From Syntrophaceae bacterium UBA4767 (GTDB taxonomy: Bacteria; Desulfobacterota; Syntrophia; Syntrophales; UBA4767): 64,000 bases of DNA. The translations under genes and the position numbers were made by a program. The notes under the pieces were generated by a model. That model was not told where the DNA came from. It made no database searches and saw only the letters and a list, made by a program, of their open reading frames with translations. Below are positions 34,266 through 57,741 of this stretch, piece after piece. Location: assembly GCA_002403385.1 (NCBI GenBank), contig DHHR01000067.1, positions 7,937 through 71,936 on the forward strand, given 5' to 3'. The stretch's first letter is position 1, and each line of letters opens with the position of its first letter.

Positions 34266-35360
34266 TTACTTGTCTTTGAAAGGGTCAGCGCCATAATGTT
34301 TTATTTCCTCCTCTTTCCGCATAACCCGTAGGCCGCCGTCGGCAAGAGCCGACATTTCATCTTCTCCGGCAAAAACAAAGACGGGAGAGAGAAATTGGAC
34401 CCACTCCTTGATCCATTCCGTCAACATCTCAGAATTGGCGAGCCCTCCGGTGAGGATGACGCCGTCTATCTGCCCCTTAAGAACAACGCTCATGGCTCCA
34501 ATATCCTTGGCCGCCTGGTAAGCCATAGCTTTGAAGATTAATTTGGCCTTCTCATCTCCCGCACGGATCATGCCTTCAATTTTTTTCACGTCTGTCGTGC
34601 CCAAATAGGCAAAGAGGCCGCCTTGCCCCACAAGTCGGTTCTGAATATTGTTTTTGTCAAACTTTTCCGAAAAGACAAGGTCAAGCAGATCGGTTGTCGG
34701 AAGAGCCCCCGCTCTTTCGGGCGTCAAAGGCCCCTCCCCAAGACCATGTGTGCAATCAATTACCTTGCCGTTTTGATGGGCGCCGATGGTAATGCCGCCG
34801 CCAAGGTGAGCAACGACGAGATTCATTTCCTCATATTTCTTTCCCCATTTCAATGCAAGGCGCCTTGCGGCTATCTTCTGGTTCAATGCATGAAAGGCGC
34901 TCTTGCGCTCTATTTCTGGAATGCCGGAAATCCTGGCAATGGGATGCAATTCATCTGTGCTCGGTGGATCGATGACGATAGCCGGCATGCCGCATCTCCT
35001 TGATATGTTCAAAGACACGACAGGTCCAAGCGCCGAAGGATGTTTTCCGTATCTTCCTTCCAGCAGGTCATGACACATTGCATCATCAATTCTGTAAGCT
35101 CCTGCCGGCGCCGGCTTTCCCAAGCCACCGCGGCTCACAATCATATCGATAGTTTTCAGGTCGATGCCGTTTGCCTTTAAAAAGGCAAAGAGGTCCTTTT
35201 CCCTAAGGGGCAATTGCGCGCGCAAAGAAGGATAAGGGGCAAGGGCCTCGCTGCTGTATCGTATCGTATCCAGAATGGACGGCTTTCCTCCCGTGAACAA
35301 ACCGACCTTCGTCGATGTCGAACCGACATTGATCACAAGCAGGCGATAATTATTATCCAT
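34266..35360 (-). CDS. buk: butyrate (short-chain acyl) kinase
   Basis: 364 aa, ASKHA fold. Motifs LVINVGSTSTKVGLF and VAHLGGGITIGA. Length and motifs fit Buk rather than AckA. Confidence 0.88.
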   Translation of the reverse strand: MDNNYRLLVINVGSTSTKVGLFTGGKPSILDTIRYSSEALAPYPSLRAQLPLREKDLFAFLKANGIDLKTIDMIVSRGGLGKPAPAGAYRIDDAMCHDLLEGRYGKHPSALGPVVSLNISRRCGMPAIVIDPPSTDELHPIARISGIPEIERKSAFHALNQKIAARRLALKWGKKYEEMNLVVAHLGGGITIGAHQNGKVIDCTHGLGEGPLTPERAGALPTTDLLDLVFSEKFDKNNIQNRLVGQGGLFAYLGTTDVKKIEGMIRAGDEKAKLIFKAMAYQAAKDIGAMSVVLKGQIDGVILTGGLANSEMLTEWIKEWVQFLSPVFVFAGEDEMSALADGGLRVMRKEEEIKHYGADPFKDK

Positions 35361-36270
35361 GTTTCATTCCCCTTGCGGATATCAAGGTTGCGATGGCAAT
35401 TTCAACTAAGCGATTTTCATCGGAGATAAAAGGCGGATTCAGCGCCACCGGTTTTGTGGTTCCCATAAGGATGCCCGCAGTTTTCATCTTGCCCCAAAAA
35501 ACAAGAGCCTCAATAAGCGAATAGCCTGTTTCTATGCAGGGAACAAGAAAGATATCTGCGTTGCCGGTCACGACGCTCATGATTCCCTTTCTTTTCGCTG
35601 CGACGCAGCTTACGGCACAGTCCATATCGAGCGGCCCTTCGACGATAGCCTTTCCGAATTGTTTTCTGTCCGCCATCTTGGCAAGGACAGCCGCATCAAC
35701 CGTTGATGGAATGCTTGGATTCACCTGTTCAATGGCAGCAAGAACCGCGACTTTGGGTTCTTTAATCCCAAGTATGTCGGCCAGACCGAGGGCGTGTTCA
35801 AGAATCAGTTGTTTTTCGACAATCCCCGGAGAGTTATTCACCAAAGTATCGGTCACGATAATTAACTTATTGCGTTTCTGCAATTGAACAACGGAGGGAT
35901 AACTTGCCACCTTGTCTTTCAGCAGACCTGTTTTGACATTTAGCGCTGCCTGTATGAAGGTTTTCTGATCTTCCCCTCCTTGCATCAGGATATCCGCTCG
36001 ATCTTCCCTGGCAAGCCTTATCGCCGCCCGAAGCGCCTCACCAGCGCCCCTTGCATTTATGATCTCGTGCTCCATGGATGCCAGGGGACTCTTTTTCAGT
36101 GTGGCTCTAATTGCCTTGCCGTCACCGACCAACAGGGGAATAACGGGCATTTTTGTAGCTGCCTTACAGAGAAGTTCTATCTCTTGCTTGTTTGGTGACG
36201 GAACCGCCAGACGTTTTTTTCCCTCATCCTTTCTCGCCCTTTTAGCAATTCCCGTGAATGTGCCGATCAT
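35353..36270 (-). CDS. ptb: phosphate acyltransferase of the PTA/PTB family (phosphate butyryltransferase-like)
   Basis: 305 aa, about the length of stand-alone phosphate butyryltransferases; family call by overall resemblance. Its stop overlaps the buk start by 8 nt. Confidence 0.8.
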   Translation of the reverse strand: MIGTFTGIAKRARKDEGKKRLAVPSPNKQEIELLCKAATKMPVIPLLVGDGKAIRATLKKSPLASMEHEIINARGAGEALRAAIRLAREDRADILMQGGEDQKTFIQAALNVKTGLLKDKVASYPSVVQLQKRNKLIIVTDTLVNNSPGIVEKQLILEHALGLADILGIKEPKVAVLAAIEQVNPSIPSTVDAAVLAKMADRKQFGKAIVEGPLDMDCAVSCVAAKRKGIMSVVTGNADIFLVPCIETGYSLIEALVFWGKMKTAGILMGTTKPVALNPPFISDENRLVEIAIATLISARGMKHG

Positions 36271-36271
36271 C

Positions 36272-37201
36272 TCAACTCACCGATTTTCCTATTCTGTCGG
36301 CCACAACAACTCCCATGGCAATTTGCGTTATAATAGCATCGCGAAGATCCGATCGCGCGGGGATGCATACTGCTCCCCTGGAAGTCACGGTAAGAGAACA
36401 ACGCTTTACCCCAAGCAGCAGGTCGAGTTTGCAGAGAATGTTTCCCGTGTCAAGGCAGGGAACGAGGAAGATATGGGGTGTTTTCATGAGATCGATTTCA
36501 CTGTAATTGTTTAAATGCCCCCCCATACCCATGAAGATTTCGGAGAGAGACGTGGAATCGATGATTTCGCACTCTCCCATATCGCCAGAAGCAGCAACCT
36601 GTTTGAGCGATTCATAATCATGATAAGAAGACAATGTTTCACTGAACTCCCGTTGGGCGGAGAGTACGGCTATTTGCGGTTTTTTATACCCAAACAGATG
36701 GTACAGAAAGACGGCATTCTTGAGGATTTCCACCTTTGTCTTGAAATCCGGATTAATAGTGACACCCGTGTCTGTGATGGCAACCAAGTGATCGACTTCG
36801 GGCATTTCCCAGAGCGATATGACGCTTACTTTCATGCCGGAGCCCGCTTTCGCTTCGGCCCTAATTGTCGAGCGGTAGATGTAGGATGTGGGTATCTGAC
36901 CTTTGCTTACAATGGACAGCTTTCCCGAAAAGAGCAGGTTGATCCCAAGATCGGAGATGGTTTGCCGGTCGTTTTCGACAATCTTTTCAAATCCACTGAT
37001 GTCGAATTTAATGTTTTTTGCTAGCCGTTCCATCTTTTTTGTATTCCCGATGAGGATCGGTTCGATATACCCCATCTCACAGCTTCTTTTTACGGCAAGC
37101 ATGAACTCTTCATCTTCCGGAGCAAGGACGGCAAGTTTCTTCGGCCCACATTTCTGCGCCAGCTTGGCAATGTCTCTTAACGATCGAACCATTGATTCCA
37201 C
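36272..37201 (-). CDS. second, divergent PTA/PTB-family paralog
   Basis: 309 aa with the same architecture as the downstream ptb, but clearly divergent in sequence. One nucleotide separates the two genes. Confidence 0.7.
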   Translation of the reverse strand: MESMVRSLRDIAKLAQKCGPKKLAVLAPEDEEFMLAVKRSCEMGYIEPILIGNTKKMERLAKNIKFDISGFEKIVENDRQTISDLGINLLFSGKLSIVSKGQIPTSYIYRSTIRAEAKAGSGMKVSVISLWEMPEVDHLVAITDTGVTINPDFKTKVEILKNAVFLYHLFGYKKPQIAVLSAQREFSETLSSYHDYESLKQVAASGDMGECEIIDSTSLSEIFMGMGGHLNNYSEIDLMKTPHIFLVPCLDTGNILCKLDLLLGVKRCSLTVTSRGAVCIPARSDLRDAIITQIAMGVVVADRIGKSVS

Positions 37202-37226
37202 CTTTCGACTACTTTTGCGGATCGGG

Positions 37227-38750
37227 TCAAATCCGGAAAAAATTCAGGCCACCTTTTAAGCGCACCTTGCCTTTTTTACCGATAAACTCTCGTTTTGTCA
37301 TCTCATCGATTGCATCCTTATCCGGTTCGGCTTTTGCCAAAAAGCGGTGGCCGTTGGGGAGTCTTCCGATGATTGTCGCATCTACAGGACGGCCTTCTCT
37401 GTCGTGGAAAATGCTGTAGGTTTCAATCTCTGCATCCCCGGAGGCATCCGACAGAAGTTGCGGCCCTTTTATCTCATCCAGATCCTTCCGGTAGACGTCA
37501 GGAGCGGGGATGTTGTGAGGAGTTTGCCGCCATCTTCCAGAATATATGCCCACAGAGTGCTTGCTGATAAACCAGCTTAGAGCCTGGACCAAACCAATCT
37601 TGTCCTTCTCGCGCCGGAGCAGCTCGACCATTTTGCAGATTGCATGCAGAGCATAATTGTTGCCAGGTCCGCCGAAATAGGGCATGCCTCCTGTGACAGA
37701 GAGAGGCCGCCGGTTGTCGTGTATGCCCAGCATGTCGCGCACCATGCGCGGCGCGCAGGGAAAACAGCTATACAGGTCAAGGTAGTCAATTTTATCGATG
37801 GTTATTCCCGCTTGGTCCAGAGCCATCGCTGCCGCAATCTTGACCGAAGGCGACGAAAAACAATTCACCCGTTCAGATACATGCCAGATATCCATAGCGT
37901 CTCCCGATCCCACAAGATAGACCCATTTTTCTGCGGGAACGCCCAATTCTGACGCGGTCCGCTCACTCGTCAGAAAAAGAGCCGCACCCTGATCCACCTG
38001 CATGATCGAGCACATAAATTTTGTATAGGGGAAGGATACCATTGGATTAGAGCTTGATACGTTGATAATTTCCTCCATCGTTTTTTTATCCCTGAACCAT
38101 GAAAATGGGTTCTCGGCGGCTATGGCGGACAGTCCGGCGCAGAACTCGCCTAATTCCGCGGCGTGGTTTTCGATGGAAAGATTTTTGTGATGCCGAAAGG
38201 CATTTTCGAAGAGGGGATATACGTTGATGGGAAGCGTGAGTCCATATTTCACTTCCAGAGCAGAGGACGGGTCACGGAGTTCCCCTGCCATCCATGGCTT
38301 TTTAGGAGGCAAATCCCACTGCTGAAATATTTTTCGCTTGAGTTTCGCTTCGATTTTTGCAGAGTGAAACGCTTCTCCACCGCAAATCAGGGCAATGCCT
38401 GTCTTCCCTTCAAAAATATTCTTGGCGGCCTGGTTGACAAACCATTGGGGGGCGGTTGCCCCGATCCATGTGTAGGCTTTTTGCCTCGGTGCAATGCCAA
38501 TCCTTGACGATATTTCTGAAAGAGGGTCAGAGTAATGACTCGACATGATATTCACCAGATAAAGCGTGTCCACCTTTTCTGTCAGCTTTTTTGTGCATGA
38601 ATCATCTTGCGCCGCACGAACGGCCGCTTCAATCATGTCCAGGGGGTTTTTGATGTCCACAGGATCGTAAGATCTGTTGACGCTCTGCCCTATGCCAATG
38701 ATCACAGGGCGCTGATGGGAAGAGAAAATAGGCATTTGGTTTTTCCTCAT
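37227..38750 (-). CDS. thiolase-like protein, TLP1/SCP-x-thiolase-related, with an extra C-terminal beta-rich domain
   Basis: Thiolase-fold blocks are present (GGEAF, LYSCFPCAP, GGMPYFGGPGNNYALHAI). The position of the nucleophilic Cys reads IGATAPQ, with no Cys. The start is uncertain: 38750 or 38735 (AGGA upstream). The ORF-track start at 38846 would overlap marR. Confidence 0.7.
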   Translation of the reverse strand: MRKNQMPIFSSHQRPVIIGIGQSVNRSYDPVDIKNPLDMIEAAVRAAQDDSCTKKLTEKVDTLYLVNIMSSHYSDPLSEISSRIGIAPRQKAYTWIGATAPQWFVNQAAKNIFEGKTGIALICGGEAFHSAKIEAKLKRKIFQQWDLPPKKPWMAGELRDPSSALEVKYGLTLPINVYPLFENAFRHHKNLSIENHAAELGEFCAGLSAIAAENPFSWFRDKKTMEEIINVSSSNPMVSFPYTKFMCSIMQVDQGAALFLTSERTASELGVPAEKWVYLVGSGDAMDIWHVSERVNCFSSPSVKIAAAMALDQAGITIDKIDYLDLYSCFPCAPRMVRDMLGIHDNRRPLSVTGGMPYFGGPGNNYALHAICKMVELLRREKDKIGLVQALSWFISKHSVGIYSGRWRQTPHNIPAPDVYRKDLDEIKGPQLLSDASGDAEIETYSIFHDREGRPVDATIIGRLPNGHRFLAKAEPDKDAIDEMTKREFIGKKGKVRLKGGLNFFRI

Positions 38751-38800
38751 GTTGCAATGTTTTTTAATGAAGGTTCTCTGTTTGGGAAAGATGATTTGTC

Positions 38801-39217
38801 TTACGGCAACTCCAGCCGACTCAAATATTCTTGAAATCGCTTCCATTCATCGGGGGCGAAGCGGTTTACAAAATGGCTATTTGTTTGCTCAAACAAGCTT
38901 AAAAAATCCCCTTTATTATTTATGGCTTTAGCAGATGGAAAAATTCGATACATGCGACGATCCCTAGGTTCCGTATGCCGTTCAACCCAGCCATCCCTCT
39001 CGAGTCTATCAAGCAGACCCGTGGCAGTGGGACGATCCAGTTCAGTTTTGTCGGCCAGTTGGCTTGGCAGAAGACCTTCTTCTTCTAAAATTGCGCACAG
39101 CATGAAAAACTGCCCATGTGTCAGCCCGTATTTTGTTATGCCTTCCCGATATCTTCGTCTGATTTTTTGTGAAGCTCGATTAAGCTGAAAACAAACGCAT
39201 CGTTCCAATTCGCTCAT
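38801..39217 (-). CDS. MarR family transcriptional regulator
   Basis: 138 aa with winged-HTH region LTHGQFFMLCAILEEEGLLPSQLADKTELDRPTATGLLDRLERDGWVER. Confidence 0.9.
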   Translation of the reverse strand: MSELERCVCFQLNRASQKIRRRYREGITKYGLTHGQFFMLCAILEEEGLLPSQLADKTELDRPTATGLLDRLERDGWVERHTEPRDRRMYRIFPSAKAINNKGDFLSLFEQTNSHFVNRFAPDEWKRFQEYLSRLELP

Positions 39218-39231: not shown

Positions 39232-40161
39232 CTATCTTTTGCGTATAAGTCCATCTTCTTGCCGTATTACCTTGCCTTCCTGCTCGAGCTTAATCAGGTG
39301 GCTCTCCAGCAATTGGGGGCCAGGGAATAATTGGACAGTAGGTTTAGGGTAAAGTTTGCCGCATAGATCCATGAAGCTTAGAGGACGATCGCCTAGAGTC
39401 TGCAATATGAGCGATTCGAGTTGAAGAATGTGCGCCTTGGTGCGTTCAATCGCCTCACGCGCCATTACGATATTTTCACCATGAGAAGGTAAAATAATGC
39501 GGGCATTTAACTTTGCAAGCCGCTCCAGGCCATTAAGATAACCGATGGCTCCCCCGGAAGACGGCGAATACCATGCCACTACCTTTCCCACCACATCTCC
39601 GGTAAATAATACTCCGCTGTCGGGGTCAAAAAGAGAAACATGGCCGGGGGCATGGCCAGGTGTGTGAATTACATGGAAACGGAATTTACCCATGCACAGG
39701 GTGTCTCCATCCGTCATGGCGTTGGTAGCGTGCGAGGAAGACATAGGACATAGCCCGGCAAAATAATCCAAGACATTGATGTTTTCTAAAGAGGGGTTAC
39801 TTTCAGATGATCCGCGTCTTTTGGCGAGGTTGTAGTCAAAAGTCTGGTTCAGGAGCTGGGGGTCGGCAGCCAGAGGGATTTCAAAGTCATGCAGGTATAT
39901 GCGCGGGGATATCTCTTGCAACAAAAAACCCATCGCCCCCATGTGGTCTGGGTGGGCATGGGAAATCACAATGGTATGGACATCACGAAGGCTAAGACCT
40001 TCATTATTCAAAAAATTTTTCAAGGTGTTGAATTTTTCTTCTTTTCCGCAACCGACGTCAATGAGGATGGCTCCATCTCGATCACGGACAAGGAATACAT
40101 TTGCAGAAGCAGGCCACATGTGACTTTCTTCTCTCATTACTTTTATTTCACCAGATATCAC
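39232..40161 (-). CDS. MBL-fold metallo-hydrolase
   Basis: 309 aa with a GTG start and GGAGG upstream. Motifs ISHAHPDHMG and TPGHAPGH. Carries a C-terminal extension of about 70 aa. Confidence 0.85.
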   Translation of the reverse strand: MISGEIKVMREESHMWPASANVFLVRDRDGAILIDVGCGKEEKFNTLKNFLNNEGLSLRDVHTIVISHAHPDHMGAMGFLLQEISPRIYLHDFEIPLAADPQLLNQTFDYNLAKRRGSSESNPSLENINVLDYFAGLCPMSSSHATNAMTDGDTLCMGKFRFHVIHTPGHAPGHVSLFDPDSGVLFTGDVVGKVVAWYSPSSGGAIGYLNGLERLAKLNARIILPSHGENIVMAREAIERTKAHILQLESLILQTLGDRPLSFMDLCGKLYPKPTVQLFPGPQLLESHLIKLEQEGKVIRQEDGLIRKR

Positions 40162-40352
40162 GCTACCTCCAGGCTTTTAGTGACTTTTCAGTTTTTGCCT
40201 TTTGTTCCATTTACTTAAATCAGATGAGGCTCTAAAAGTAAGCTATCGGGCGCGAAATATAAACTATACTAGATGCGGATGCAACAGTAAAAGTATGTAC
40301 GCACCCGATAGGAAATAAATACAAAACGCTGCCATTAAACGTTTACATATTC

Positions 40353-42845
40353 TTATCCCAACCCCTGGACGGTTCTCTGGATGATATTGTCCTGAGTTTT
40401 GCGGCTGATGTCCACAAAATGAGCGCTGTAACCAGCTACACGAACAATCACCTCTGAGTATTTCTCTGGATCCTTTTGCGCAGCACGGAGCGTCGCATCA
40501 TCAATCATGTTAAACTGAACATGATCATTCCCGAGATCAGCCCATGTATGCATGTATGCTTTCCAAAGCTGATAACCTTTCTCTCCGGCTAACTGTGTTG
40601 GAGATAAGCGTTGATTTAACAAAAACGCCCGCCCGTCACTGACATGATCAATTTTTCCGCATGATTTCAATACAGCCGTTGGGCCCTTTTTATCCAGACC
40701 CGGCCCTGGAGAGATACCGCCATCATACAAAGCGTCGCCAAGCCTTCTGCCATTGGGTAGCGCCCCTACAACGTTGGCATAATGTATATTGCCGCTCACA
40801 TTCTCGGGAAGAGCAGGCCAGTTATTCCCTGAAGTGCACTTAATAACCCGGGAATGGCGCGCTGCTTCTCTTAAACATCGAAGCATAATCTGATCCACAT
40901 AGTTATCATCATTACCCCACTTCGGCGCATTGCGAACAAAATCCATCCGCATTTCTTCGAAACCTTCCCAATTAGCCTCCAGAGCATCCATCAACTGAGC
41001 CATCGTGTATTTCTTATCATCAAAAACCAACTTCTTAACCGCAGCAAGACTATCTGCATTCTCCACCCAGGTAAAGAAAGTAACCCAAGCATTGCCGCGC
41101 TCACCCTCAGGACTTATAGCATCAATCCCTGATTCTACGGAACGTTCATATATCGCTGATAAAAACGGGCGACCATTGTTCTTGGGATCAAGCATTCTTC
41201 CCATATTTACTGTTCGGGTCAAAATATTCATAATCCATTCCATCTGCTTGACCCATGCACTAAAAAGCTGTTCAAAATCAGCAAACTTTCGCGCATCTCC
41301 TGTCTTTGGCCCCATCTGCATATTGACTACACGGTCATATCCATTAGAAAGAGCATATTCAATCATCTTGGCGGTGTTAGCCGTAGCATGAGCCATACGC
41401 ATAGCCAGACACCCATGCTTAGTAGTAGGACAAGGAGACATACAGGCCTGATGAACCCAGGTTCTTGCTTCTTCAACGGGATGACCATGCCAGTTCATGG
41501 AATTGGCAATCAGAACGGGATCATTTCGCATAGAAGGGTACCCCAAACCTTGCCTGATACATTCGAAACACTCCCGCATGACTTCATCTTTCACCTTGGG
41601 GTGCCATCTAAAACCAAATGTCGGATTAGATACTCTTACCAACCTCGCAGCCTGCATATAAGCTACAGTTATATCATTACATGCATCAGAGCCATCTGGA
41701 TGAACTCCTCCCATAGTCCAAACCCAGGTTCCGGTAATGCCCTGAAGTCCCTCTCTTCCCAAACGTGGAACAAAAATCCCAATTTCATAGGCCCTTATTA
41801 GTTGCTCTCCAATTAGATCCAAAGCGTCTTCTTTGGTTAACCGTTTTTCAACATTTACATCTTTATCATAATAAGACCCATGAACATAATCCGGGCGATG
41901 CGGCCAGGCCAATTCTATTCCTTCTATACGTGAAAGCACGTGCACAAAATGGTCAAACTGCAAAGATTCTTGAAGATTCCGTGGTGGCATAGCGGGAACA
42001 CGTTCACAGGTCTCGGCAATACGCAAAAGTTCCTCTTTTCTTTTCGTATCCATTTCAAAATGCTCTGCAATGATTCGTGCAAGTCGAGAATATCTTTGTG
42101 CATAACGAATTGCAGCATCAAGGATGAGCTGCATGCCTTCCCAATTTCGCATCTTCTCATAAAGAGGAAAGAGTTCTGGTCCGGAAGGCCCCTGAAGCTT
42201 TTCATCTGTTTCATCCAGATGCTTTTCAATTTCGGCGATTATCGCTTTAAATCCTTTAAATATGAAATTAAAATCTTTGCTGGCATAACCACCAAACGAG
42301 GTAGGAACGCCCCAACCTATGGCGCCACTGACAAATTTCACTGCATCTTCAGGATCAATAGCGCGAACCAGGTGATCGAGCGCAGTCCGTCCAGCCCAAT
42401 AATCATTCAATTCAGCCAAAAGCTTTAATGATTCATCTTCTGGCTCAGGAATGAGACCTTGGGTATTATAGACTTCCTCATTAAACATACTCGCCCATTC
42501 ATGTGCATGAAGCAAAGTATGTGGCGCGTTAGAAACACATCCTACTATTTGAGATTGATCCGTAATAAATATGGAGATATTGTCTAATACATTTGCTAAT
42601 GCCTTTGCTTTTCTTAGCATGGTTGAATCATGCTCACTGGCCTTCCACCCTTCTGTGAAGAGAACTGATCTTTCTAGGTCAACTTTTATTCCTGGTGCAT
42701 ACAAACCACCAATAGCTCCTTTCTTCCATACCGCTTTTCTTAAATAATCCAATCTCTTCGATCTGGTTTTTTCCGCCATCCACCACCACTCACGATTTTC
42801 TTTGAGCTCTTCTAACGATTTATCTTTCGATGCGGTTACGGACAT
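40353..42845 (-). CDS. glycyl radical enzyme, X-succinate synthase (fumarate-adding, BssA/AssA-like) clade candidate
   Basis: 830 aa from ATG 42845 (GGAGGG 7 nt upstream). Glycyl motif VRVAGYSAHFVD (Gly codon 40431-40433). Cys loop HQACMSPCP (Cys codon 41442-41444). Additional blocks APKWGNDDNY, ANWEGFEEMRMDF, DKKGPTAVLKS and LLNQRLSP. Confidence 0.85.
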   Translation of the reverse strand: MSVTASKDKSLEELKENREWWWMAEKTRSKRLDYLRKAVWKKGAIGGLYAPGIKVDLERSVLFTEGWKASEHDSTMLRKAKALANVLDNISIFITDQSQIVGCVSNAPHTLLHAHEWASMFNEEVYNTQGLIPEPEDESLKLLAELNDYWAGRTALDHLVRAIDPEDAVKFVSGAIGWGVPTSFGGYASKDFNFIFKGFKAIIAEIEKHLDETDEKLQGPSGPELFPLYEKMRNWEGMQLILDAAIRYAQRYSRLARIIAEHFEMDTKRKEELLRIAETCERVPAMPPRNLQESLQFDHFVHVLSRIEGIELAWPHRPDYVHGSYYDKDVNVEKRLTKEDALDLIGEQLIRAYEIGIFVPRLGREGLQGITGTWVWTMGGVHPDGSDACNDITVAYMQAARLVRVSNPTFGFRWHPKVKDEVMRECFECIRQGLGYPSMRNDPVLIANSMNWHGHPVEEARTWVHQACMSPCPTTKHGCLAMRMAHATANTAKMIEYALSNGYDRVVNMQMGPKTGDARKFADFEQLFSAWVKQMEWIMNILTRTVNMGRMLDPKNNGRPFLSAIYERSVESGIDAISPEGERGNAWVTFFTWVENADSLAAVKKLVFDDKKYTMAQLMDALEANWEGFEEMRMDFVRNAPKWGNDDNYVDQIMLRCLREAARHSRVIKCTSGNNWPALPENVSGNIHYANVVGALPNGRRLGDALYDGGISPGPGLDKKGPTAVLKSCGKIDHVSDGRAFLLNQRLSPTQLAGEKGYQLWKAYMHTWADLGNDHVQFNMIDDATLRAAQKDPEKYSEVIVRVAGYSAHFVDISRKTQDNIIQRTVQGLG

Positions 42846-42884
42846 AATAACACCCTCCTTCCTTAAGTTCATTCCAATCTTGTT

Positions 42885-42902
42885 TTGTTAATTGAATAAC
42901 AA
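42885..42902. promoter_or_regulatory. 18-bp palindrome TTGTTAATTGAATAACAA, candidate operator (MarR-type?)
   Basis: 7 of 9 positions are self-complementary. Located 40-57 nt upstream of the GRE start codon. Confidence 0.3.
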
Positions 42903-43120
42903 GGAACAATTCACAGTGTTTTTGTTTCTATCCGCCTCCTATTTTGCAAATAAGCTTGCCCAAAGATGATTTCTCTATAAAAATAGTATTCCGCTAGGTC
43001 ACGCAACCATATGGCAAGACTTCAGGTAAATAACTAGCACACTAATTATTTAAACGCAAACTATTTTTTACCAGTTAGATGTAAAAATATGATAACTGCC
43101 TAGGGCGAACAATGAATTTT

Positions 43121-43217
43121 GACAAAATCGTAAAAAGTCAAAATTCGCGGATTTTGTCATGGTGAGCACTTCGGCCGGCTCAGGGTGACAATTGGGACTT
43201 TTTACGAGTGCATCAAT
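43121..43217. repeat. intergenic repeat, copy B
   Basis: A 47-nt module, GACAAAATCGTAAAAAGTCAAAATTCGCGGATTTTGTCATGGTGAGC, differs at 1 nt from 57742-57788. A second module, CTCAGGGTGACAATTGGGACtTTTTACGAGtgCATCAAT, matches 57839-57877. Confidence 0.8.
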
Positions 43218-43237
43218 TTTGAAAGGAGAATTACGTA

Positions 43238-44434
43238 TCACAGATCATTCAGTTCGATTTTGAGGGAAAGGAAATTAAGCATGTCTTTCAGGGCAATGAC
43301 CCCTGCCAGGCGTTCCCCGTCTGCCACCATAAGTCGGCTGTTTCCCGAGCGGCTCATGAGAGACAGAGCATATGCCGCATCGTCGTTGGGGCTGACAATT
43401 GTCTCCGGAGCGCATGGTATGGCAATGTCCCCCACCGTACGAAGGGGCCGCTCCTTATAGTCCACTCCTGCTACCTCCTTGACCGTGACGCAACCCAGCA
43501 GTTTCCCCCATGATACCACGGGAAACATTTTAAAATGATATTTATAGACGTATTCATTGACAAATTCTTCCATGGAAGTGGAAGGGGGAACGGTTATAGG
43601 GTTGGCAATCATAAAGCGACTTACTTTCTCCCCCTCCAGCGCTTTGCGTGTGAGCGCCTGCCGGTAGGACATCTGGGCGGCGTTCTTGACAAAAATCCCG
43701 ATCATGAACCACCACAGTCCTCCGATGAAATTTTGTCTGAAGAAACTGATGATTCCTAAAACAATCAACACAATACCAAAACCCGAACCGATCTGGGCGG
43801 CAATATTGGTGGCCCAGCGGAAGTTCTTTTTCCAGTTCCACAGGGTGGCACGAAGCACACGGCCTCCATCAAGGGGAAATGCAGGAATCAGATTGAATAC
43901 GGCCAGCGCCAGGTTGAGCCATGCCAGATAGTAAATCACAGCGATGACGCATACGGACAGTCCGCTTGATATGCCTGCTTTGGAAAGGCCATAAAGGACC
44001 ATGCCGATAAAAAAACTGGACAGTGGTCCAGCGCCTGCCATGAAAAATTCGGCTTTTGCGCTGGGAGGTTCATCGTCCATTTCTGCAACGCCACCGAAGA
44101 TAAAAAGGGTGATGCCCTTCATAGGGATGCCATAACGGGTGGCGACCAGAGAATGACATAACTCGTGGAAAACAAGGGACAAAAATAACCCCAGCGCCCC
44201 GGCAGCGCCCATCCACCAGTAAGTTGATGGAGGCATGTTCGGATACTGAGTGGGGAAGTATCCTCTTGCCAGGGACCACGTTACAAACCAGGCAAGAATC
44301 AACCAGCTGGCATCCATGCGGACTTCGAAACCCAAGAGCCTGAAAAGTGTAAGTCTTTTTCCGAACACGGCTTCCCTATTAATTAAGATTTTACGGCGCT
44401 TCCATGGAAGCAGGACACCAAACCCCATTCTCAC
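43238..44434 (-). CDS. M50 (site-2 protease class) zinc metalloprotease with a C-terminal CBS pair
   Basis: 398 aa and polytopic, with the HExxH motif HELCHSLVA and a second metal motif region (NLIPAFPLDGG). The CBS-like C-terminus ends in ...GVIALKDML. The start codon is uncertain. Confidence 0.85.
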   Translation of the reverse strand: MRMGFGVLLPWKRRKILINREAVFGKRLTLFRLLGFEVRMDASWLILAWFVTWSLARGYFPTQYPNMPPSTYWWMGAAGALGLFLSLVFHELCHSLVATRYGIPMKGITLFIFGGVAEMDDEPPSAKAEFFMAGAGPLSSFFIGMVLYGLSKAGISSGLSVCVIAVIYYLAWLNLALAVFNLIPAFPLDGGRVLRATLWNWKKNFRWATNIAAQIGSGFGIVLIVLGIISFFRQNFIGGLWWFMIGIFVKNAAQMSYRQALTRKALEGEKVSRFMIANPITVPPSTSMEEFVNEYVYKYHFKMFPVVSWGKLLGCVTVKEVAGVDYKERPLRTVGDIAIPCAPETIVSPNDDAAYALSLMSRSGNSRLMVADGERLAGVIALKDMLNFLSLKIELNDL

Positions 44435-44679: not shown

Positions 44680-45840
44680 GTGAGAATACACGAATTTCAG
44701 GCCAAGGAGCTTTTGCGGCGCTATGGTGTGCCTGTGCCTTTGGGTGAGATGGCGCAAACCCCTGAGTCGGTTCGTAAGATCGCTTTGCAACTGGGAACGA
44801 AAGTGGTAATCAAAGCGCAAATCCACGCGGGGGGGCGGGGTAAGGCAGGAGGGATCCTTTTTGCGGAAACGCCTGAGGATGCATACCGGAAAGCGAAAAA
44901 GCTCATAGGCAGGACTCTGGTTACGGCGCAGACAGGACCTGAAGGGAAGCGTGTCCAAAAGGTCATGGTCGAAAGGCTGACGCCTGTCCGGAAAGAAATG
45001 TACCTCGCTTTGATCATAAGCCGCGCGCGGGGCATGGAATGTCCTGTTTTCATGGCTTCCAGCATAGGGGGGATGGAGATAGAGAAAATAGCCACAAAAG
45101 CTCCGGAAGAGCTGGCAACGGTTGCCGTTCACCCTGCTGTGGGATTTAGCCCTTTTCAAGGGAGAAAACTTGCCGGCGGACTGGGTTTGAAGGATTCTTT
45201 GAGAGAGCAACTGACTGATATTGTCAAAAACATATACGATTTTTTCGTTCAAAACGATGCGTTGCTCGTGGAAATCAATCCCCTGGGAATCGATGATCAG
45301 GAACGGCTTGTTGCTTTGGATGCGAAAATCCAGTTCGACGAAGACGCTCTTTTTCGCCATCCGAAACTAAAGGAACTTCAGGACGTGACACAAGTGGATC
45401 CTTTGGAGTGGGAGTCCCTTGCTGCGGGGTTTAGATATATTGTCCTGGATGGCGACGTGGGATGCATTATCAATGGGGCGGGACTCGCAATGGCAACGAT
45501 GGACTTGATTAAACTGGCCGGAGGGAAGCCGGCGAATTTTCTGGATGTGGGAGGGGGGGCATCTCCCGGGCAGATAGCACAGGCGTTTCGTATCCTGGCT
45601 TCACATCCGAATGTCAAGGTTATATTGATCAATGTCTTTGGAGGGATTCTTCGCTGTGATTGGGTGGCAGCGGGGTTGTGCGAAGCGGTCCCAAAAATGA
45701 GAAGAGATATACCTGTGGTTATCCGTCTGCAAGGGACCAACAAGGAAGAAGGCCGTCGCCTTCTCAAGGAGGCGGACTTTCATTTTGAAACGGCGGAAGG
45801 TCTTTTCGAGGCGGTGCAAAAGGCTGTATCTTTAACTTGA
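44680..45840 (+). CDS. sucC: succinate--CoA ligase (ADP-forming) beta subunit
   Basis: 386 aa with a GTG start. N-terminus MRIHEFQAKELL and an ATP-grasp domain. Confidence 0.95.
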   Translation: MRIHEFQAKELLRRYGVPVPLGEMAQTPESVRKIALQLGTKVVIKAQIHAGGRGKAGGILFAETPEDAYRKAKKLIGRTLVTAQTGPEGKRVQKVMVERLTPVRKEMYLALIISRARGMECPVFMASSIGGMEIEKIATKAPEELATVAVHPAVGFSPFQGRKLAGGLGLKDSLREQLTDIVKNIYDFFVQNDALLVEINPLGIDDQERLVALDAKIQFDEDALFRHPKLKELQDVTQVDPLEWESLAAGFRYIVLDGDVGCIINGAGLAMATMDLIKLAGGKPANFLDVGGGASPGQIAQAFRILASHPNVKVILINVFGGILRCDWVAAGLCEAVPKMRRDIPVVIRLQGTNKEEGRRLLKEADFHFETAEGLFEAVQKAVSLT

Positions 45841-45872
45841 AACAATGAAAAATACGAAAGAATGACTTGAAA

Positions 45873-46760
45873 ATGGCCATACTTTTTGATAAGAACTCCC
45901 GAGTCGTCTCCCAGGGCATTACAGGGGAAACAGGGCGCTTCCATACCCGTGAAGCCATCAAGTTTGGAACCAGGATTGTTGCCGGCGTGGCGGTGGGGAA
46001 AGGCGAAACGTTTTTTGACGGGATTCCTGTCTATGATCGGGTGGTTGATGCCGTAAAGCGACATGGGACTAATGCTTCGGGGATATATGTCCCCCCAGCC
46101 TCTGCGATGGACGCAATTATTGAGCAGATTGAAGCGGGGATTTCCTTAATCGTATGTGTGACGGAAGGTATTCCCCTTCATGATATGGTGAAGGTCAAAC
46201 AGGCGCTGAAAGGTTCGGCGTCTCGGATGATCGGCCCGAATTGTCCGGGCATCACCACCCCTGGAGACGGTAAAATTGGCTTTATGCCTAACTTTATTCA
46301 TAAAAAAGGCCATGTGGGTGTGGTTTCCAAAAGCGGAACGCTCACCTATGAGATTATCTGGCAGCTGACCCAGATGGGCATCGGTCAATCGACCTCGGTG
46401 GGAATTGGCGGCGATCCCATTGTGGGTTCCGATTTCGTTGATATATTGGCCCTTTTTGAACAGGATTCCCAGACGAAACTGATCGTGCTCATCGGGGAAA
46501 TCGGCGGCGATGCGGAGCATGAAGCGGCCGATTTTATTAAGGAAAAGATGAAAAAGCCGGTGGTTGCCTTTGTGGCGGGTCGAACGTCTCCTCCGGGAAA
46601 AAGGATGGGCCATGCCGGTGCGATCATCGGCGGGGCCAGAGAAACGGCGCAGGAGAAGGAAAAAGCATTGAAAAGGGCGGGTGCGACCATTGCGGAAAAT
46701 CCTGTTGAGATTGGTGTCGTGGTCAAGGAAATCCTGGCTGGGGCGTATACCCGTTCATAA
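45873..46760 (+). CDS. sucD: succinate--CoA ligase alpha subunit
   Basis: GITGETGRFH, SKSGTLTYE and MGHAGAII (phosphohistidine loop) motifs. ATG 45873 is preferred over the TTG at 45867. Confidence 0.95.
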   Translation: MAILFDKNSRVVSQGITGETGRFHTREAIKFGTRIVAGVAVGKGETFFDGIPVYDRVVDAVKRHGTNASGIYVPPASAMDAIIEQIEAGISLIVCVTEGIPLHDMVKVKQALKGSASRMIGPNCPGITTPGDGKIGFMPNFIHKKGHVGVVSKSGTLTYEIIWQLTQMGIGQSTSVGIGGDPIVGSDFVDILALFEQDSQTKLIVLIGEIGGDAEHEAADFIKEKMKKPVVAFVAGRTSPPGKRMGHAGAIIGGARETAQEKEKALKRAGATIAENPVEIGVVVKEILAGAYTRS

Positions 46761-46861
46761 CGATAGTTGTTTTGATAAGGATTCAATATTTTAGAGGAAG
46801 GAGGATGTAAGCGGAGGTGTAAGGCCGGCGGAAAGCTGGTTGGAGCACACCGTGGAGGGTT

Positions 46862-49045
46862 ATGTCGAAAGATCAAAATCAAAACAAAGAACCGCAATGT
46901 GCAAATGTAGATGTGGGTTTGTTTGCCGAATTTTCCGGTGTGACATACAAACAGTGGCGTGATGCTGCCGAACAGACCCTGAAAGGGGCGCCTTTTGAGA
47001 AGAAACTCGTTACCAAAACATATGAGGGAATAGACCTTCAGCCTATCTACTGGCAGGAGGATATCGAAACTTTATCCCATACCGCTTCCTTTCCGGGGAA
47101 AATTCCCTATCTCCGCCATCGCGACATACTAGGTTACCTGTTGGAACCATGGCGGGTAAGCCAGGAGTTGGTGGATGCAACGCCTGCGTTGCTGAATCAA
47201 GCAGCCCGCAATGATTTGGAAAGAGGGCAGACGGAATTGAATGTTTTGTTGGACCAGGCCGCTCTGGCGGGTATGGATGCCGATGCGGCGAAGACACAGC
47301 AGGTAGGCAAGGGCGGCGTTTCCATATCGAGTAGTGAAGATATGGCAAAGATGCTGGAAGATATCGCCATCGATAAGGCGCCGATTTACCTTCAGGCCGG
47401 CGCTGTGGCGCTGCCGGCGCTGGCGCTGTTGATCTCCGTGACAAAGGATCGCAAAATTCCGCTTGACAAGCTAAGCGGGTGTGTCGGCATGGACCCGCTT
47501 GCCGTTTTAGCCGATAAGGGCGCCTTACCCTATTCTTTGCAGGGGGCCTACGATATGATGGCGGCCTTGACCCTGTGGGCGAAAAAAAACGTTCCCGCAT
47601 TGCAAACAATTGTGGTTCAGACCCACCCTTACCATAATGGCGGCGGTAATTCCGTTCAGGAGCTGGCCTACGCCATGGCGACGGCGGTGGAATACGTAAG
47701 CGAAATGCTCTCCAGGGGCATCTCCATTGATGAGATAACTCCACGGATTCGATTTTCCTTCTCTGTGGGTTCGAAATTTTTTATGGAAGTTGCCAAATTG
47801 CGGGCGGCCCGGCTGCTTTGGACACAGATCGTGCAAGCTTTTGGAGGGCAAGAAGAAGCGCAGAAGATGCACATGCATGTTTGTACCTCCCTCTGGACAA
47901 AAACCGTCTATGATCCCTATGTGAACATGTTAAGGACAACAACGGAGGCTTTTTCGGGAATCATGGGAGGCGCCAACAGCATTCACGTGGGAGCTTTCGA
48001 TCAGGTCATCCGGCCGCCGGATGAATTCTCCCGGCGTATTGCCAGAAATATTCAAATTATTTTGGAAAAGGAATCCAAGCTAGGCGTTCCCATCGATCAG
48101 TCAGGAGGTTCATGGTACATTGAAAAGCTGACCGATGAGGTGGCGAAAAAAGCATGGTCTGTCTTCCAGGAGCTGGAGGCGAAGGGCGGTATGTCCAAAG
48201 CATTGAAGGAAGGCATTCCCCAGGCACAAATCGCCAAGGTGGCGGCGGAGCGAAAAACAAACATCGGCCATCGTCGCGACATTTTTGTCGGAACGAATAT
48301 GTATCCCAACTTGGGAGAAACTCCTCTGCCTCCCCGGGCGGTGGATCATGAGGCTGTTCAGGAAGAACAGTCTGAGCAGTTGGCTCGTTTCCGAGCTTTG
48401 CGGGATGAAAAAAAGCTAAAGGCGGCATTGGGGATGCTTGCCGCGGCCAAGAAAACCGCGGGCGAAGAACTGGTTGCTGCTGCCATTGCGGCAGCCCAAG
48501 CCGGGGCCACACTGGGCGATATTGCCGAAAAGCTTAGGGATGATGCTGTAACACCGAAAATTCAGGCTATTCCATGTGAACGAGGAGCCGAAATTTTCGA
48601 GGCCCTGCGGAAAGCGGCAGAGCAATATCAGACAAAAACAGGCTCCCGGCCGAAGGTGTTTTTGGCCAACATGGGGCCCATCCCCCAGCATAAAGCCCGG
48701 GCGGATTTTTCCACAGGTTTTTTTGAAACGGGCGGATTTGAAGTGATCAAGAACGACGGCTTTCCAACCGTGGAAGATGCGGCAAAAGCCGCTCTTGAAT
48801 CGAAAGCATCGCTGGTTGTGATTTGCTCGACGGACGATACCTATCCGGAATTGGTCCCACCGCTTGCAAAACGGATAAAGGAAGCGAGTCCGAATGTAAC
48901 GATTATTCTTGCCGGTTATCCGGTGGATCATGTGGATGCCTTCAAGCAGGCGGGCGTTGATGACTTTATCCACATGAGGGCAAATTGTTATGAGATGCTT
49001 CGCAAGTTACAGGAGAAGAAAGGAGTGGCGTATAATGGCAAATAA
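46862..49045 (+). CDS. mutA: methylmalonyl-CoA mutase family, non-catalytic beta-type subunit (lacks the B12 His ligand motif)
   Basis: 727 aa with the mutase barrel ([15 protein letters not shown]) and a C-terminal flavodoxin-like domain. That domain reads [14 protein letters not shown] where the alpha subunit has DxHxxG. Confidence 0.85.
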
Positions 49046-51224
49046 ACCGGATTTCACTGCGATTGAATATGGAAAAGGGAATGTCCCGACTCTTTCGCTT
49101 GACGCCTGGCGCAAGCAGGCTGAAAAAGAAGCGGGAAGGACGCTGGAAGCGCTGTATTGGAAAACCGACGAGCAGATCGCCGTCAAACCTCTTTATATCA
49201 GAGAGGATTTGGATAAGGAAGAACACATCGGTTTTACGGCAGGGATTGAACCTTTCCTGCGGGGGCCGTATCCCACGATGTATGTGACAAGGCCATGGAC
49301 GGTTCGCCAGTACGCCGGTTTTTCGACGGCGGAGGAAAGCAATGCCTTTTATCGCCGCAATTTGGCGGCCGGTCAGAAGGGGCTTTCCATCGCTTTCGAT
49401 CTGGCAACCCATCGTGGCTATGATTCCGATAACCCCCGTGTCGTTGGCGATGTTGGAAAGGCGGGGGTGGCCATCGATTCGCTGTTGGACATGAAGATCC
49501 TCTTTGACGGCATTCCCCTCGATAAAATGTCCGTTTCCATGACCATGAACGGCGCCGTGCTCCCTGTGATGGCCTTTTACATTGTAGCCGCGGAAGAGCA
49601 GGGGGTCAAATTTCCCCAGCTCAACGGCACCATTCAAAATGACATCCTCAAAGAATACATGGTGCGCAATACTTACATCTATCCACCTTCGCCTTCCATG
49701 CGGATCATCGCCGATATTTTTGAGTTCACGTCCAAAAACATGCCGAAATATAACAATATCAGCATTTCCGGTTACCATATGGAGGAGGCGGGAGCGACAT
49801 CGGACCTCGAGCTGGCCTATACGCTGGCGGACGGATGGGAATATGTGAGGGCGGGAATTAAGGCGGGGATCGATATTGACGCCTTCGCTCCGAGGCTGTC
49901 CTTCTTTTTTGCCGTCGGCATGAATTATTTCATGGAAGTGGCCAAATTGCGGGCTGCCCGGCTGCTCTGGGCGAAGATCATCAAGCAGTTTAATCCCAAG
50001 GATTCCAGATCCCTGGCGCTGCGCACCCATTGCCAGACGTCGGGCTGGAGCCTAACGGAGCAGGATCCCTACAACAATGTGGCAAGAACCTGCGTGGAGG
50101 CCATGGCGGCAGCCATGGGACATACCCAATCGCTGCATACCAATTCTTTTGACGAAGCGTGTACATTGCCGACGGATTTTTCGGCGCGTATTTCCCGTAA
50201 TACCCAGCTCTATCTGCAGGATGAAACGGGCATGTGCGCCGTGGTGGATCCCTGGGGCGGGTCGTATTATGTGGAAGCGCTGACAGGCGCCCTCGCCCGC
50301 AGGGCGTGGCAGCATATACAGGAGGTCGAGTCGCTGGGCGGAATGGCCAAGGCCATCGAAACGGGCTTGCCTAAGATGCGTATAGAGGAAGCTGCCGCGC
50401 GTCGTCAGGCCCATATTGATTCCGGCAAGGAAGCCATCATCGGGGTCAACAAGTATCGTCTGGCCAAAGAAGAACCCCTGGAAATTTTGGAAATCGATAA
50501 CACGGCTGTTCGCACGGCTCAGATTAATCGCCTGGCAAAACTGCGCAAGGAACGGGACGAAGCGAAGGTGCGGGCAGCCCTCAATGCGATTACCAAGGCG
50601 GCGGAAACAGGCAAGGGAAATCTGTTGGCCCTTTCCATTGAAGCGGCCCGGGCGCGGGCGTCGTTGGGAGAAATTTCAGATGCCATGGAAAAGGTGTTCG
50701 GGCGCCATAAGGCCGTTATCCGATCCATCTCCGGTGTGTACAGCGCCGAATTCGGCGAGGAGGAAGACGTGGCGAAGGTCCGTAAGATGACGGATGAATT
50801 CGAAAAACATGAAGGACGCCGTCCCCGGATTATGATCGCGAAAATGGGACAGGATGGACACGACCGCGGCGCGAAAGTCATTGCCACGGCATTCGCGGAT
50901 ATGGGATTTGATGTGGATATCGGGCCCCTTTTCCAAACACCGGAAGAAACGGCTCAGCAGGCGGTGGAAAATGATGTCCATGTGATCGGCATGAGTTCTC
51001 TGGCCGCCGGCCACAAGACCCTCTTGCCAAAACTGGTGGAGGAACTAAAGCGACTCGGTCGGGAGGACATCCTGATTGTAGCAGGCGGTGTTATCCCCGC
51101 GCAGGATTATGAATATCTCAAAACAAATGGAGCGGCTGCGATTTTCGGTCCGGGAACGGTTATTCCTGTTGCCGCTCAGAAGGTTCTCGAGGAGATCAAC
51201 CGCCGCTTGACGGAAACACATTAA
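49035..51224 (+). CDS. mutB: methylmalonyl-CoA mutase catalytic alpha subunit
   Basis: 729 aa from ATG 49035 (AGGAG 9 nt upstream), overlapping mutA by 11 nt. Motifs [13 protein letters not shown] and [15 protein letters not shown]. The B12 motif is [12 protein letters not shown]. Confidence 0.95.
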
Positions 51225-52361
51225 ATGATGACGCCTAAAAAGCAGAGGCCAGAATGGGCGCCGCTGGAAAGTGGTGACGCTTTTACCTCGTTTGTGATGG
51301 AGGGGGTGGAAGGCGGTCATGACGGTATGCCGGGGCAATCTACAAGAGGTTCTGCCAATGTTATCCGACCGGTGTATCGCCGGCTTTCCGTGGAAGATTA
51401 TGTCAAGGGAGTGTTGGCAGGAAATCGAACCATCCTGGCGCAGGCCATTACACTGATTGAAAGCAACGCGCCGGCTCACGTGGAAATGGCGCAGGAAGCG
51501 CTTAAGCAACTTTTGCCCCATACCGGCAGGGCTATGCGTGTGGGCATTACCGGTGTTCCGGGATCGGGGAAGAGCACCTTCATCGAAGCTCTGGGGTGTA
51601 TGCTTTGCGCTCAGGGGCATAAGGTAGCGGTTCTGGCGGTCGATCCGAGCAGCACCATTACTCGTGGCAGTATTTTAGGGGATAAGACGCGTATGGACGC
51701 CCTTTCCCGTAAAAAGCATGCTTTTATCCGCCCTTCTCCTTCGGGAGGAACGCTGGGAGGTGTCGCCCGTAAGAGCCAGGAAACCATGCTGGTTTGCGAG
51801 GCTGCCGGTTTTGATGTGGTTCTTATCGAGACGGTAGGCGTGGGTCAGAGCGAAGTCACCGTGCGGTCCATGGTGGATTTTTTTCTGTTGCTTGTGCTTA
51901 CGGGAGCCGGTGACGAATTGCAGGGCATAAAAAGAGGGGTCATGGAACTGGCCGATGCGTTGGTGATAAATAAGGCGGACGGGGACAACAGGCTTCGCGC
52001 TCAATCCACCAAGGCAGAGTATGACCGGATTTTGCACTATCTCCAGCCCGCGACGGAAGGTTGGATAACGCGCGCCTTTACCTGTTCGTCGCTGACAGGG
52101 GAAGGAGTGGAGGAGATTTGGGCTGTCATTGAGGATTTTCGGGAAAAGACGGTGAAATCAGGCGTGTTTTATGACAGAAGGCGGGCTCAGATCTTGGATT
52201 GGGTCTATACGATGGTTTGGGAGCACCTGCGGATAAGGTTTCTGAATCATCCGGGTGTTGCGGCAATTACCCCCAAGGTGGAGCAGGATGTTTTGAATGG
52301 GAAGCTTTCCGCGACGATGGCGGTCAGAGAGCTGATCGACACGTTTGAAAGGCAAAAATAA
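51225..52361 (+). CDS. meaB: methylmalonyl-CoA mutase-associated G-protein chaperone (MeaB/ArgK)
   Basis: P-loop GVPGSGKST, plus DPSS and the G4 motif INKADG. The N-terminus is about 50 aa longer than usual, so the start is uncertain. Confidence 0.9.
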   Translation: MMTPKKQRPEWAPLESGDAFTSFVMEGVEGGHDGMPGQSTRGSANVIRPVYRRLSVEDYVKGVLAGNRTILAQAITLIESNAPAHVEMAQEALKQLLPHTGRAMRVGITGVPGSGKSTFIEALGCMLCAQGHKVAVLAVDPSSTITRGSILGDKTRMDALSRKKHAFIRPSPSGGTLGGVARKSQETMLVCEAAGFDVVLIETVGVGQSEVTVRSMVDFFLLLVLTGAGDELQGIKRGVMELADALVINKADGDNRLRAQSTKAEYDRILHYLQPATEGWITRAFTCSSLTGEGVEEIWAVIEDFREKTVKSGVFYDRRRAQILDWVYTMVWEHLRIRFLNHPGVAAITPKVEQDVLNGKLSATMAVRELIDTFERQK

Positions 52362-52384
52362 TATTAATTCGAGAGGAATGTATC

Positions 52385-52789
52385 ATGAAAACACTGAAGG
52401 TTGACCACATTGGCATAGCAGTTCAAAGCATCGGGGAAGCATTGAAATTCTATTCTGATATCCTGGGCTTGAAATTGGCAGGAGAAGAAGTGGTTCAGGA
52501 ACAAAAGGTGAAAACGGCTTTTCTTCCCATCGGCGATACGGAGGTAGAGCTTCTGGAATCCACGGCGCCGGATGGGCCCATCGCAAAGTTCATCGAGAAG
52601 AAGGGGGAAGGAATTCAGCACATCGCCTTTTTGGTGGATAATATTGAAGAGGCCCTGAAAGAACTTGGAGAAAAAGGGGTCAAGATGATTGACCAGAAGC
52701 CGCGTATGGGCGCAGGTGAAAAACGCATCGCATTCCTTCACCCGAAAGATACCTACGGCGTTTTGGTGGAGCTGTGTGAGAAAAAATAA
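52385..52789 (+). CDS. mce: methylmalonyl-CoA epimerase (VOC superfamily)
   Basis: 134 aa with VDHIGIAV...EGIQHIAF...HPK motifs. Lies in the mutase operon. Confidence 0.9.
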   Translation: MKTLKVDHIGIAVQSIGEALKFYSDILGLKLAGEEVVQEQKVKTAFLPIGDTEVELLESTAPDGPIAKFIEKKGEGIQHIAFLVDNIEEALKELGEKGVKMIDQKPRMGAGEKRIAFLHPKDTYGVLVELCEKK

Positions 52790-52830
52790 CGGTTTGACAT
52801 TCCGTTCAAACAAATGAAGGAGAAACTTAA

Positions 52831-57731: not shown

Positions 57732-57741
57732 ATTAAATAAT

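Follow-up and report, generated by a model that had tools for sequence, protein, structure and literature searches.

A stretch of 64,000 nucleotides from contig DHHR01000067.1 of Syntrophaceae bacterium UBA4767 (assembly GCA_002403385.1, positions 7,937 to 71,936, hereafter the window) carries a gene for a glycyl radical enzyme (GRE) which, judged from its sequence, encodes the catalytic alpha subunit of an alkylsuccinate synthase (AssA/MasD). The genes for the small subunits gamma, beta and delta and for the radical-SAM activase were not found in the window. With a probability of roughly 0.6, we regard this as a functional solitary alpha gene that was acquired horizontally and is served in trans by partners encoded outside the 64 kb. 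The solitary assA locus is a minority arrangement already visible in public genomes of the AssA family, and the answer to the missing partners is mostly an ordinary one.

Identity of the glycyl radical enzyme

The protein has the architecture of the GRE superfamily: a PFL-like barrel (Pfam PF02901, 4e-121) with the Cys loop ACMSPCP in its middle, and a C-terminal glycyl radical domain (Gly_radical, PF01228, 3e-28) with the motif RVAGYSA. The best match among solved structures was chain A of 9O8U, MasD, the alpha subunit of the (1-methylalkyl)succinate synthase (MASS) of Azoarcus sp. HxN1 (PMC12358834), with E = 0, 1368 bits and about 75 % identity over the full length (residues 17-839). The alpha subunit of benzylsuccinate synthase (BSS) reached 502 bits and all other glycyl radical enzymes at most 329 bits. 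Cys loop, glycyl motif and the fumarate and pocket residues are common to MasD and the GRE. The fumarate-binding and alkane-pocket residues of MASS have been listed (PMC12358834); the GRE retains the catalytic C477, the radical Gly, the fumarate ligands R492, E690, Y194 and T598, the pocket residue F600 and the gate residue W185, each of them conserved in 90-95 of 95 aligned family members. The sole difference in the functional list is the variable pocket position Phe192, a Gly in the GRE and likewise in 28 of the 95 family members. The beta- and delta-contacting regions of alpha are well conserved in the pairwise alignment with MasD. All top database matches, at 69-85 % identity, were of the AssA type, and their contigs carry ass accessory genes. 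The first-pass annotation had spoken of a GRE resembling X-succinate synthases (XSS), a label that is too weak at about 75 % identity to MasD: these sequence comparisons identify the protein as a genuine alpha subunit of an alkylsuccinate synthase (AssA/MasD). The gene is, broadly speaking, an assA/masD orthologue and should be annotated as encoding this subunit, not a formate acetyltransferase. Membership in the PFL2/PflD/glycerol-dehydratase type was ruled out by the scores to the corresponding PDB chains (2f3o, pyruvate formate-lyase 2, and 8yjo, PflD; 219-261 bits versus 1368 for MasD) and by an NCBIfam PFL2-3 score of 378 against a cut-off of 678. The suggested analogy to the PflD-type enzymes of Archaeoglobus is, by the same bit scores, not apt.

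The gene is the only large open reading frame (ORF) within 40162-43237 and lies on the minus strand. A longer reading, 40353..42872 with 839 aa, begins at an alternative upstream ATG. Since GGAAGGAGGG stands just 5' of the ATG at 42845 and no ribosome-binding site precedes the one at 42872, the downstream ATG is likely the true start; the gene has a strong Shine-Dalgarno sequence upstream, and the resulting 830-aa product is identical to the database protein P0001.

Partner genes are absent from the window

The first-pass annotation had found neither an activase nor small subunits beside the GRE gene or elsewhere in the 64 kb, and motif search, Pfam and six-frame searches bear this out. No stop-to-stop frame of at least 50 aa across the window contains the CxxxCxxC motif. 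Among 50 ORFs, nearly all the large ones, Pfam recognized no Radical_SAM and no BssC_TutF domain, only housekeeping and central metabolism (dnaA, dnaN, gyrB, gyrA, parAB, gidB, ilv, pyr, methylmalonyl-CoA pathway, butyrate kinase). Profile hidden Markov models (HMMs) for the activase (AssD/MasG), gamma (AssC/MasC), beta (MasB), delta (MasE) and one further cluster protein were built from 57-116 family members each; these came from 78 genomic ass loci with a relative of the GRE, and the small Cys-containing proteins were picked by reading the small ORFs around canonical copies. The structure of MASS identifies the three small proteins as the gamma subunit MasC/AssC of about 54 aa, the beta subunit MasB of about 122 aa and the rubredoxin-like delta subunit MasE of about 75 aa (PMC12358834). 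Searched with HMMER filters off against the 1813 six-frame segments of at least 20 aa in the window, these models gave best E values of 0.085-0.7 and scores below 10 bits, and the top matches all fell within or antisense to other genes. Thus, the window holds neither gamma, beta and delta genes beside alpha, by HMMs, Pfam and tblastn, nor a dedicated AssD/MasG activase in the cluster, the two features of a holoenzyme locus.

The spacers deserved particular attention as possible sites of overlooked small genes. Their sizes agree with the earlier estimates of 191 bp downstream and about 390 bp upstream; the latter measures 392 bp from the preferred start, or 365 bp from 42872, up to position 43238, where the M50/CBS protease gene ends. 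Cys-rich coding, which the first reading had not seen in either spacer, is indeed lacking: the spacer ORFs have merely 23-57 aa and no Cys clusters. A small-subunit gene emerging from a sensitive small-ORF search of the spacers had been named as a finding that would overturn the picture; none emerged. Remnants of small subunits left no trace in the spacers by tblastn (word size 2) or by blastn against the flanks of relatives, which returned noise only. The HMMs gave no more than noise there either, and the idea that the spacers conceal small-subunit genes or their pseudogenes was rejected. No Rfam family matched the GRE spacers. As sigma-54 activators adjoin many ass clusters, a sigma-54 promoter (TGGCAC-N5-TTGCW) was sought; no match with up to one mismatch occurs anywhere in the window. 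A 12-nt inverted repeat with a 45-nt loop (CTATCGGGCGCG at 40243-40254 and CGCACCCGATAG at 40300-40311) lies shortly 3' of the GRE stop; it has no T-run and is not a classical intrinsic terminator.

An assembly artefact does not account for the solitary arrangement, because at least 12 independent metagenome contigs (JGI, ENA) present the identical GRE protein with the same neighbours and junctions.

Solitary and operon-embedded assA genes

The loci of related alpha subunits are organized differently. masD sits in masBCDE together with masG, whereas the window gene has no gene for beta, gamma, delta or an activase within the 64 kb. Canonical AssA proteins of Desulfatibacillum alkenivorans, Desulfosarcina alkanivorans and metagenome-assembled genomes (MAGs) of Desulfomonilaceae (L023, L040, L015, L011, L013) share 71-77 % identity, length and domains with the GRE, but have AssD, gamma, beta and delta within about 1.5 kb. 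The closest relative, P0002 on the ENA contig L091, is 85 % identical, with 126 differences, and represents the second alpha of a tandem ass operon in the order delta', activase, activase', delta, gamma, alpha1, beta, gamma, alpha2 (P0002), delta. In contrast to the solitary gene of the window, P0002 has its own beta and gamma upstream, delta downstream and two activases in the operon. Its contig has a GC content of 42 % and thus belongs to another organism than the window. Window GRE and P0002 share the lineage-specific substitutions Y103C, W113H, Q302H and G312L. L091 (ENA TANS21 scaffold_3800) is itself unusual, with duplicated gamma and delta genes and two alphas bearing signs of gene conversion (dS 0.79 between the copies, skewed relative-rate counts). 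The next relatives, at 77 % identity in Desulfomonilaceae and Desulfobacteraceae MAGs, also reside in complete clusters, and a scan of species-representative genomes revealed no homologue of the GRE above 77 % identity. A GRE clade that does not need small subunits, once considered as a way out, is not what the nearest relatives represent.

To see how often assA stands alone, 36 copies of the gene were compared, all from species-representative genomes and all flanked on each side by 5 kb or more of sequence. Gamma, beta, delta and activase were all present for 27 of these genes, which agrees with the initial statement that an activase and small subunits accompany the catalytic gene in characterised XSS loci. 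Four genes (L014, L017, L024 and L049; 11 %) had none of the four partners within 10 kb, and a few loci retained gamma alone or beta alone. Three of the four solitary copies share a MAG with a complete cluster, which is L039 for L014 and L028 for L017, in both cases on the contig of the solitary copy, and L047 for L024, 27 kb away. These solitary paralogues resemble the window GRE in the absence of small subunits and activase, but belong to other AssA lineages (70-75 % identity) and stand in other contexts, e.g., with sigma-54 activators upstream. Smithella-type clusters, from a related host order, share with the window GRE the lack of an adjacent activase (L046, L118-L126); in contrast, gamma, beta and delta adjoin their alpha, which is only about 72 % identical to the GRE. 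In the Smithella MAGs (L118-L126) the order is DctP, gamma, beta, alpha, delta, in L102-L106 it is beta, gamma, alpha, delta, followed by an AMP-binding ligase, and both lack an activase within 10 kb. Trans-encoded activases and alpha genes apart from the accessory genes both recur in the AssA family. The MBL-fold protein next to the GRE was tried as a recurring neighbour of solitary assA genes and rejected as coincidence, because the MBL proteins in the vicinity of other assA loci are only 22 % identical to it. A literature search on solitary assA genes found no report in the library searched.

Integrity and selection

The first-pass annotation had proposed to verify that the ORF is intact and under purifying selection, and considered a decaying remnant as one explanation. 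The ORF is intact. Synonymous sites are saturated against every available relative, and therefore pN/pS (proportions of nonsynonymous and synonymous differences), relative-rate and site-class tests were applied in place of dN/dS. Against the P0002 gene, pN was 0.10 at a saturated pS of 0.79. In Tajima relative-rate tests of the window GRE versus the operon-embedded P0002 (L091b), the counts were balanced with seven outgroups, e.g., 41 versus 40 unique substitutions. With L091a, which stands in tandem with L091b, as an eighth outgroup the counts were 65 versus 25; we attribute this to gene conversion between the tandem copies. On the balanced counts the solitary GRE has evolved no faster than its operon-embedded relative. 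For the conserved-site test, 348 columns were evaluated in which conservation reaches at least 95 % across 51 alphas encoded next to small subunits. The window GRE departs at 12 of them, six of these in common with L091b; L091b itself shows eight deviations, Smithella-type canonical alphas seven to eight, and canonical genes in a leave-one-out comparison 0-34. A sister population encodes the protein P0122 (92 % identity, on a 40,427-bp JGI contig) with 68 differences, nine of which lie in the conserved 42 % of sites where 28.5 were expected (p = 3e-7). The pattern of substitutions is that of a gene under purifying selection.

Genomic neighbourhood, host and origin

The features around the GRE gene are compiled in Table 1. 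Next after the GRE and MarR genes, the thiolase-like gene (TLP1 C-terminal domain), the two phosphate butyryltransferase paralogues in tandem and the butyrate kinase gene (34266-38846) form an acyl-CoA to ATP module, as one would expect for a fatty-acid-oxidising syntroph. The co-directional block that begins with the GRE has a tRNA gene at its far end (33115-33185, Rfam RF00005, 57.7 bits). In the divergent methylmalonyl-CoA block the glyoxalase-fold protein would be the epimerase. The two methylmalonyl-CoA mutase ORFs, 46862-49045 and 48990-51224, overlap by 56 nt; metagenome calls start the second 45 nt later (729 aa), which leaves an overlap of 11 nt.

Table 1 Features in and around the GRE locus, with positions in the window
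Feature	Position	Strand	Basis and remarks
MarR regulator, thiolase-like protein, two phosphate butyryltransferase paralogues, butyrate kinase; co-directional, downstream	34266..39217	-	Pfam, NCBIfam
MBL-fold hydrolase, downstream neighbour; no ass gene	39232..40161	-	Pfam, NCBIfam
Downstream spacer	40162..40352	-	191 bp to the GTG start (40161) of the MBL-fold gene; no small-subunit gene
Predicted assA/masD-type alkylsuccinate synthase catalytic (alpha) subunit	40353..42845	-	830 aa; Pfam, PDB match, conserved motifs
Upstream spacer	42846..43237	-	No small-subunit gene; holds Shine-Dalgarno sequence and repeat copy 43110-43223
M50 metalloprotease with CBS domains, upstream neighbour; no ass gene	43238..44434	-	Pfam
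Methylmalonyl-CoA pathway block, divergent: succinyl-CoA ligase beta and alpha, two methylmalonyl-CoA mutase subunits, MeaB, glyoxalase-fold protein, carboxyltransferase	44680..54384	+	Pfam

Mutase, MeaB and carboxyltransferase genes are likewise found beside canonical ass operons, namely in L099 and L108 and on the contig that encodes P0021. In pathway proposals, the mutase acts in the carbon-skeleton rearrangement and a carboxyl transferase in the decarboxylation (PMC5606693). Because the methylmalonyl-CoA functions beside the GRE also adjoin canonical ass clusters, the insertion site is functionally sensible. The functions of the methylmalonyl-CoA pathway would additionally regenerate fumarate.

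The window includes the chromosomal origin region at 10006-21475, with gidB, parA, parB, dnaA, dnaN, gyrB and gyrA all on the minus strand and a GC content that falls to 0.37-0.40 at 16-20 kb. The assA gene is located about 22 kb from dnaA in the core chromosome. GyrB of the window is 72-76 % identical to those of Syntrophales, Smithella and Syntrophus MAGs, with no closer match in any named genome. The tetranucleotide correlation of the window with Smithella contigs was about 0.91, below the 0.94-0.97 within the window, and the host is therefore related to Smithella, yet a different organism. The exact GRE protein occurs on metagenome contigs of JGI, ENA and Logan, and the JGI/ENA sample numbers of the window population are near those holding canonical Smithella ass clusters. 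The host is an uncultured Syntrophales-like bacterium of methanogenic hydrocarbon-degrading communities.

The GC content at third codon positions (GC3) of the GRE gene is 0.387, the lowest among its neighbours (0.48-0.57) and about 1.9 standard deviations under the window mean of 0.523. A repeat element of about 115-150 nt is present in two intergenic copies, 43110-43223 and 57731-57883, with 85-91 % identity and an insert of about 39 nt in copy B. It carries nested palindromes (TTTTGAC-N13-GTCAAAA) and a GC-rich, hairpin-like part. Several metagenome contigs of the population end at or near the repeat copies. The element is probably multi-copy, resembling miniature inverted-repeat transposable or repetitive extragenic palindromic elements (MITE/REP-like), or else a shared operator. 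Low GC3, the nearest relative on a contig of 42 % GC and the repeat element in the upstream spacer suggest that the alpha gene was probably gained horizontally and without its partners.

A solitary alpha probably served in trans, and the alternatives

The explanation we favour can be formulated as follows. The gene product would be the catalytic alpha subunit of a (1-methylalkyl)succinate synthase, a glycyl radical enzyme adding n-alkanes to fumarate. Its donor would be a lineage in which this type of alpha is the second alpha of a tandem ass operon. In the present host, alpha would be bound by gamma, which covers a hydrophobic patch and provides solubility, and would owe its maturation to an AssD/MasG-type radical-SAM activase; beta would contribute substrate gating and delta the control of the glycyl radical domain, as in MASS. 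Gamma, beta, delta and activase would all come from genes elsewhere in the genome. The alpha subunits of MASS and BSS expressed alone were recovered wholly in inclusion bodies (PMC13450708), and MasB and MasE were required for alkylsuccinate formation in E. coli (PMC12358834). Given the insolubility of MASS alpha by itself, its requirement for beta and delta, the conservation of the regions that contact them and the presence of the partners beside P0002, dependence on partners is to be expected for the solitary alpha as well. A service in trans is plausible because three of the four solitary copies share a MAG with a complete cluster and the Smithella-type clusters have no activase nearby. We infer that partner genes exist in this genome and serve the solitary alpha. 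Activation in trans, one of three explanations offered at first reading, is the best supported of them, but the bare alpha subunit that went with it does not agree with the insolubility of MASS alpha and its need for beta and delta.

Several observations weigh against this explanation. For this organism, no activase or small-subunit gene was detected within the 64 kb or among the metagenome AssD matches listed. The AssD alignment patterns in the metagenome scan matched all GRE activases, and the AssD-like loci among the matches listed, at least six, included none from the relevant samples. A second closely related assA from the same samples was absent among the database homologues checked: P0003, P0008, P0094, P0073, P0021, P0043 and P0101, as well as the activase P0365, come either from different samples or, in sister samples within the same ENA series, from Smithella. 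As no closer paralogue appeared among these matches, the GRE alpha may be the sole assA in its genome. Furthermore, one JGI contig of 18,103 bp presents a version of the GRE split by several frameshifts into P0125 and P0127 (pieces of 478 aa and 336 aa), which may be a pseudogenised allele. In old assemblies of this population other genes are split as well, the thiolase in L008 and L090 and in L090 also the butyrate kinase; hence the frameshifts are probably a sequencing error.

It is rather unlikely that the gene is an intact but useless passenger, with an alpha that moved without its partners into a genome lacking a compatible activase and small subunits, and a protein that is not made or remains insoluble. 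The atypical GC3 as a sign of horizontal arrival, the probably multi-copy repeat within the upstream spacer, the partner genes missing from the 64 kb, the lack of a co-occurring close paralogue among the homologues checked and the frameshifted variant would all suit a passenger, but an identical protein has been retained across samples and years, in 12 assemblies or more, the sister protein of 92 % identity differs mostly at non-conserved sites (p = 3e-7), the rate is not accelerated against the operon-embedded relative, and the gene has kept a strong Shine-Dalgarno sequence. For the decay of a former ass operon, one may point to the adjacent mutase, MeaB and carboxyltransferase genes, which resemble the periphery of canonical ass clusters. 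We hold such a remnant to be barely credible: the ORF is intact at 830 aa with all functional residues present, pN is 0.10 at saturated pS, there is no acceleration, the substitutions avoid conserved sites in the manner of purifying selection, and the spacers contain no remnants of small subunits. Very improbable is also an autonomous or simplified alkylsuccinate synthase, in which alpha dispenses with some or all of gamma, beta and delta and relies on a generic glycyl-radical activase. The solitary state of about 11 % of assA loci, with others keeping gamma or beta only, indicates that the gene set is not rigidly linked; beyond this absence of neighbours, an autonomous enzyme finds no other support. 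The protein is nested in the canonical clade and shares 85 % identity with an alpha that is accompanied by beta, gamma, delta and two activases, which refutes the structurally simpler XSS lineage of the first-pass annotation at the level of the clade. On their own, MASS and BSS alpha are insoluble, and activity in E. coli depends on beta and delta (PMC13450708, PMC12358834); contact regions and the Trp185 gate are conserved, and a burst of lineage-specific substitutions, as a remodelled hydrophobic gamma patch would predict, is missing. Quite improbable to us, too, is a genome that holds no gamma, beta, delta or AssD-type activase while the solitary alpha is nevertheless active; such an enzyme would do without the accessory subunits regarded as indispensable for solubility, gating and radical installation, or would be matured by a generic activase.

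Implications

The assA gene is widely used as marker gene of anaerobic alkane degradation. An assA on a contig does not imply a complete enzyme at that locus, nor do missing assBCD genes beside assA imply a dead gene. One accessory set and one activase may serve several interchangeable alphas with different alkane ranges. If the service in trans holds true, organisms could broaden their alkane range by gathering alpha subunits while keeping one accessory set. The structure of MASS now defines the contacts between the subunits and thus makes the idea of collected alphas testable.

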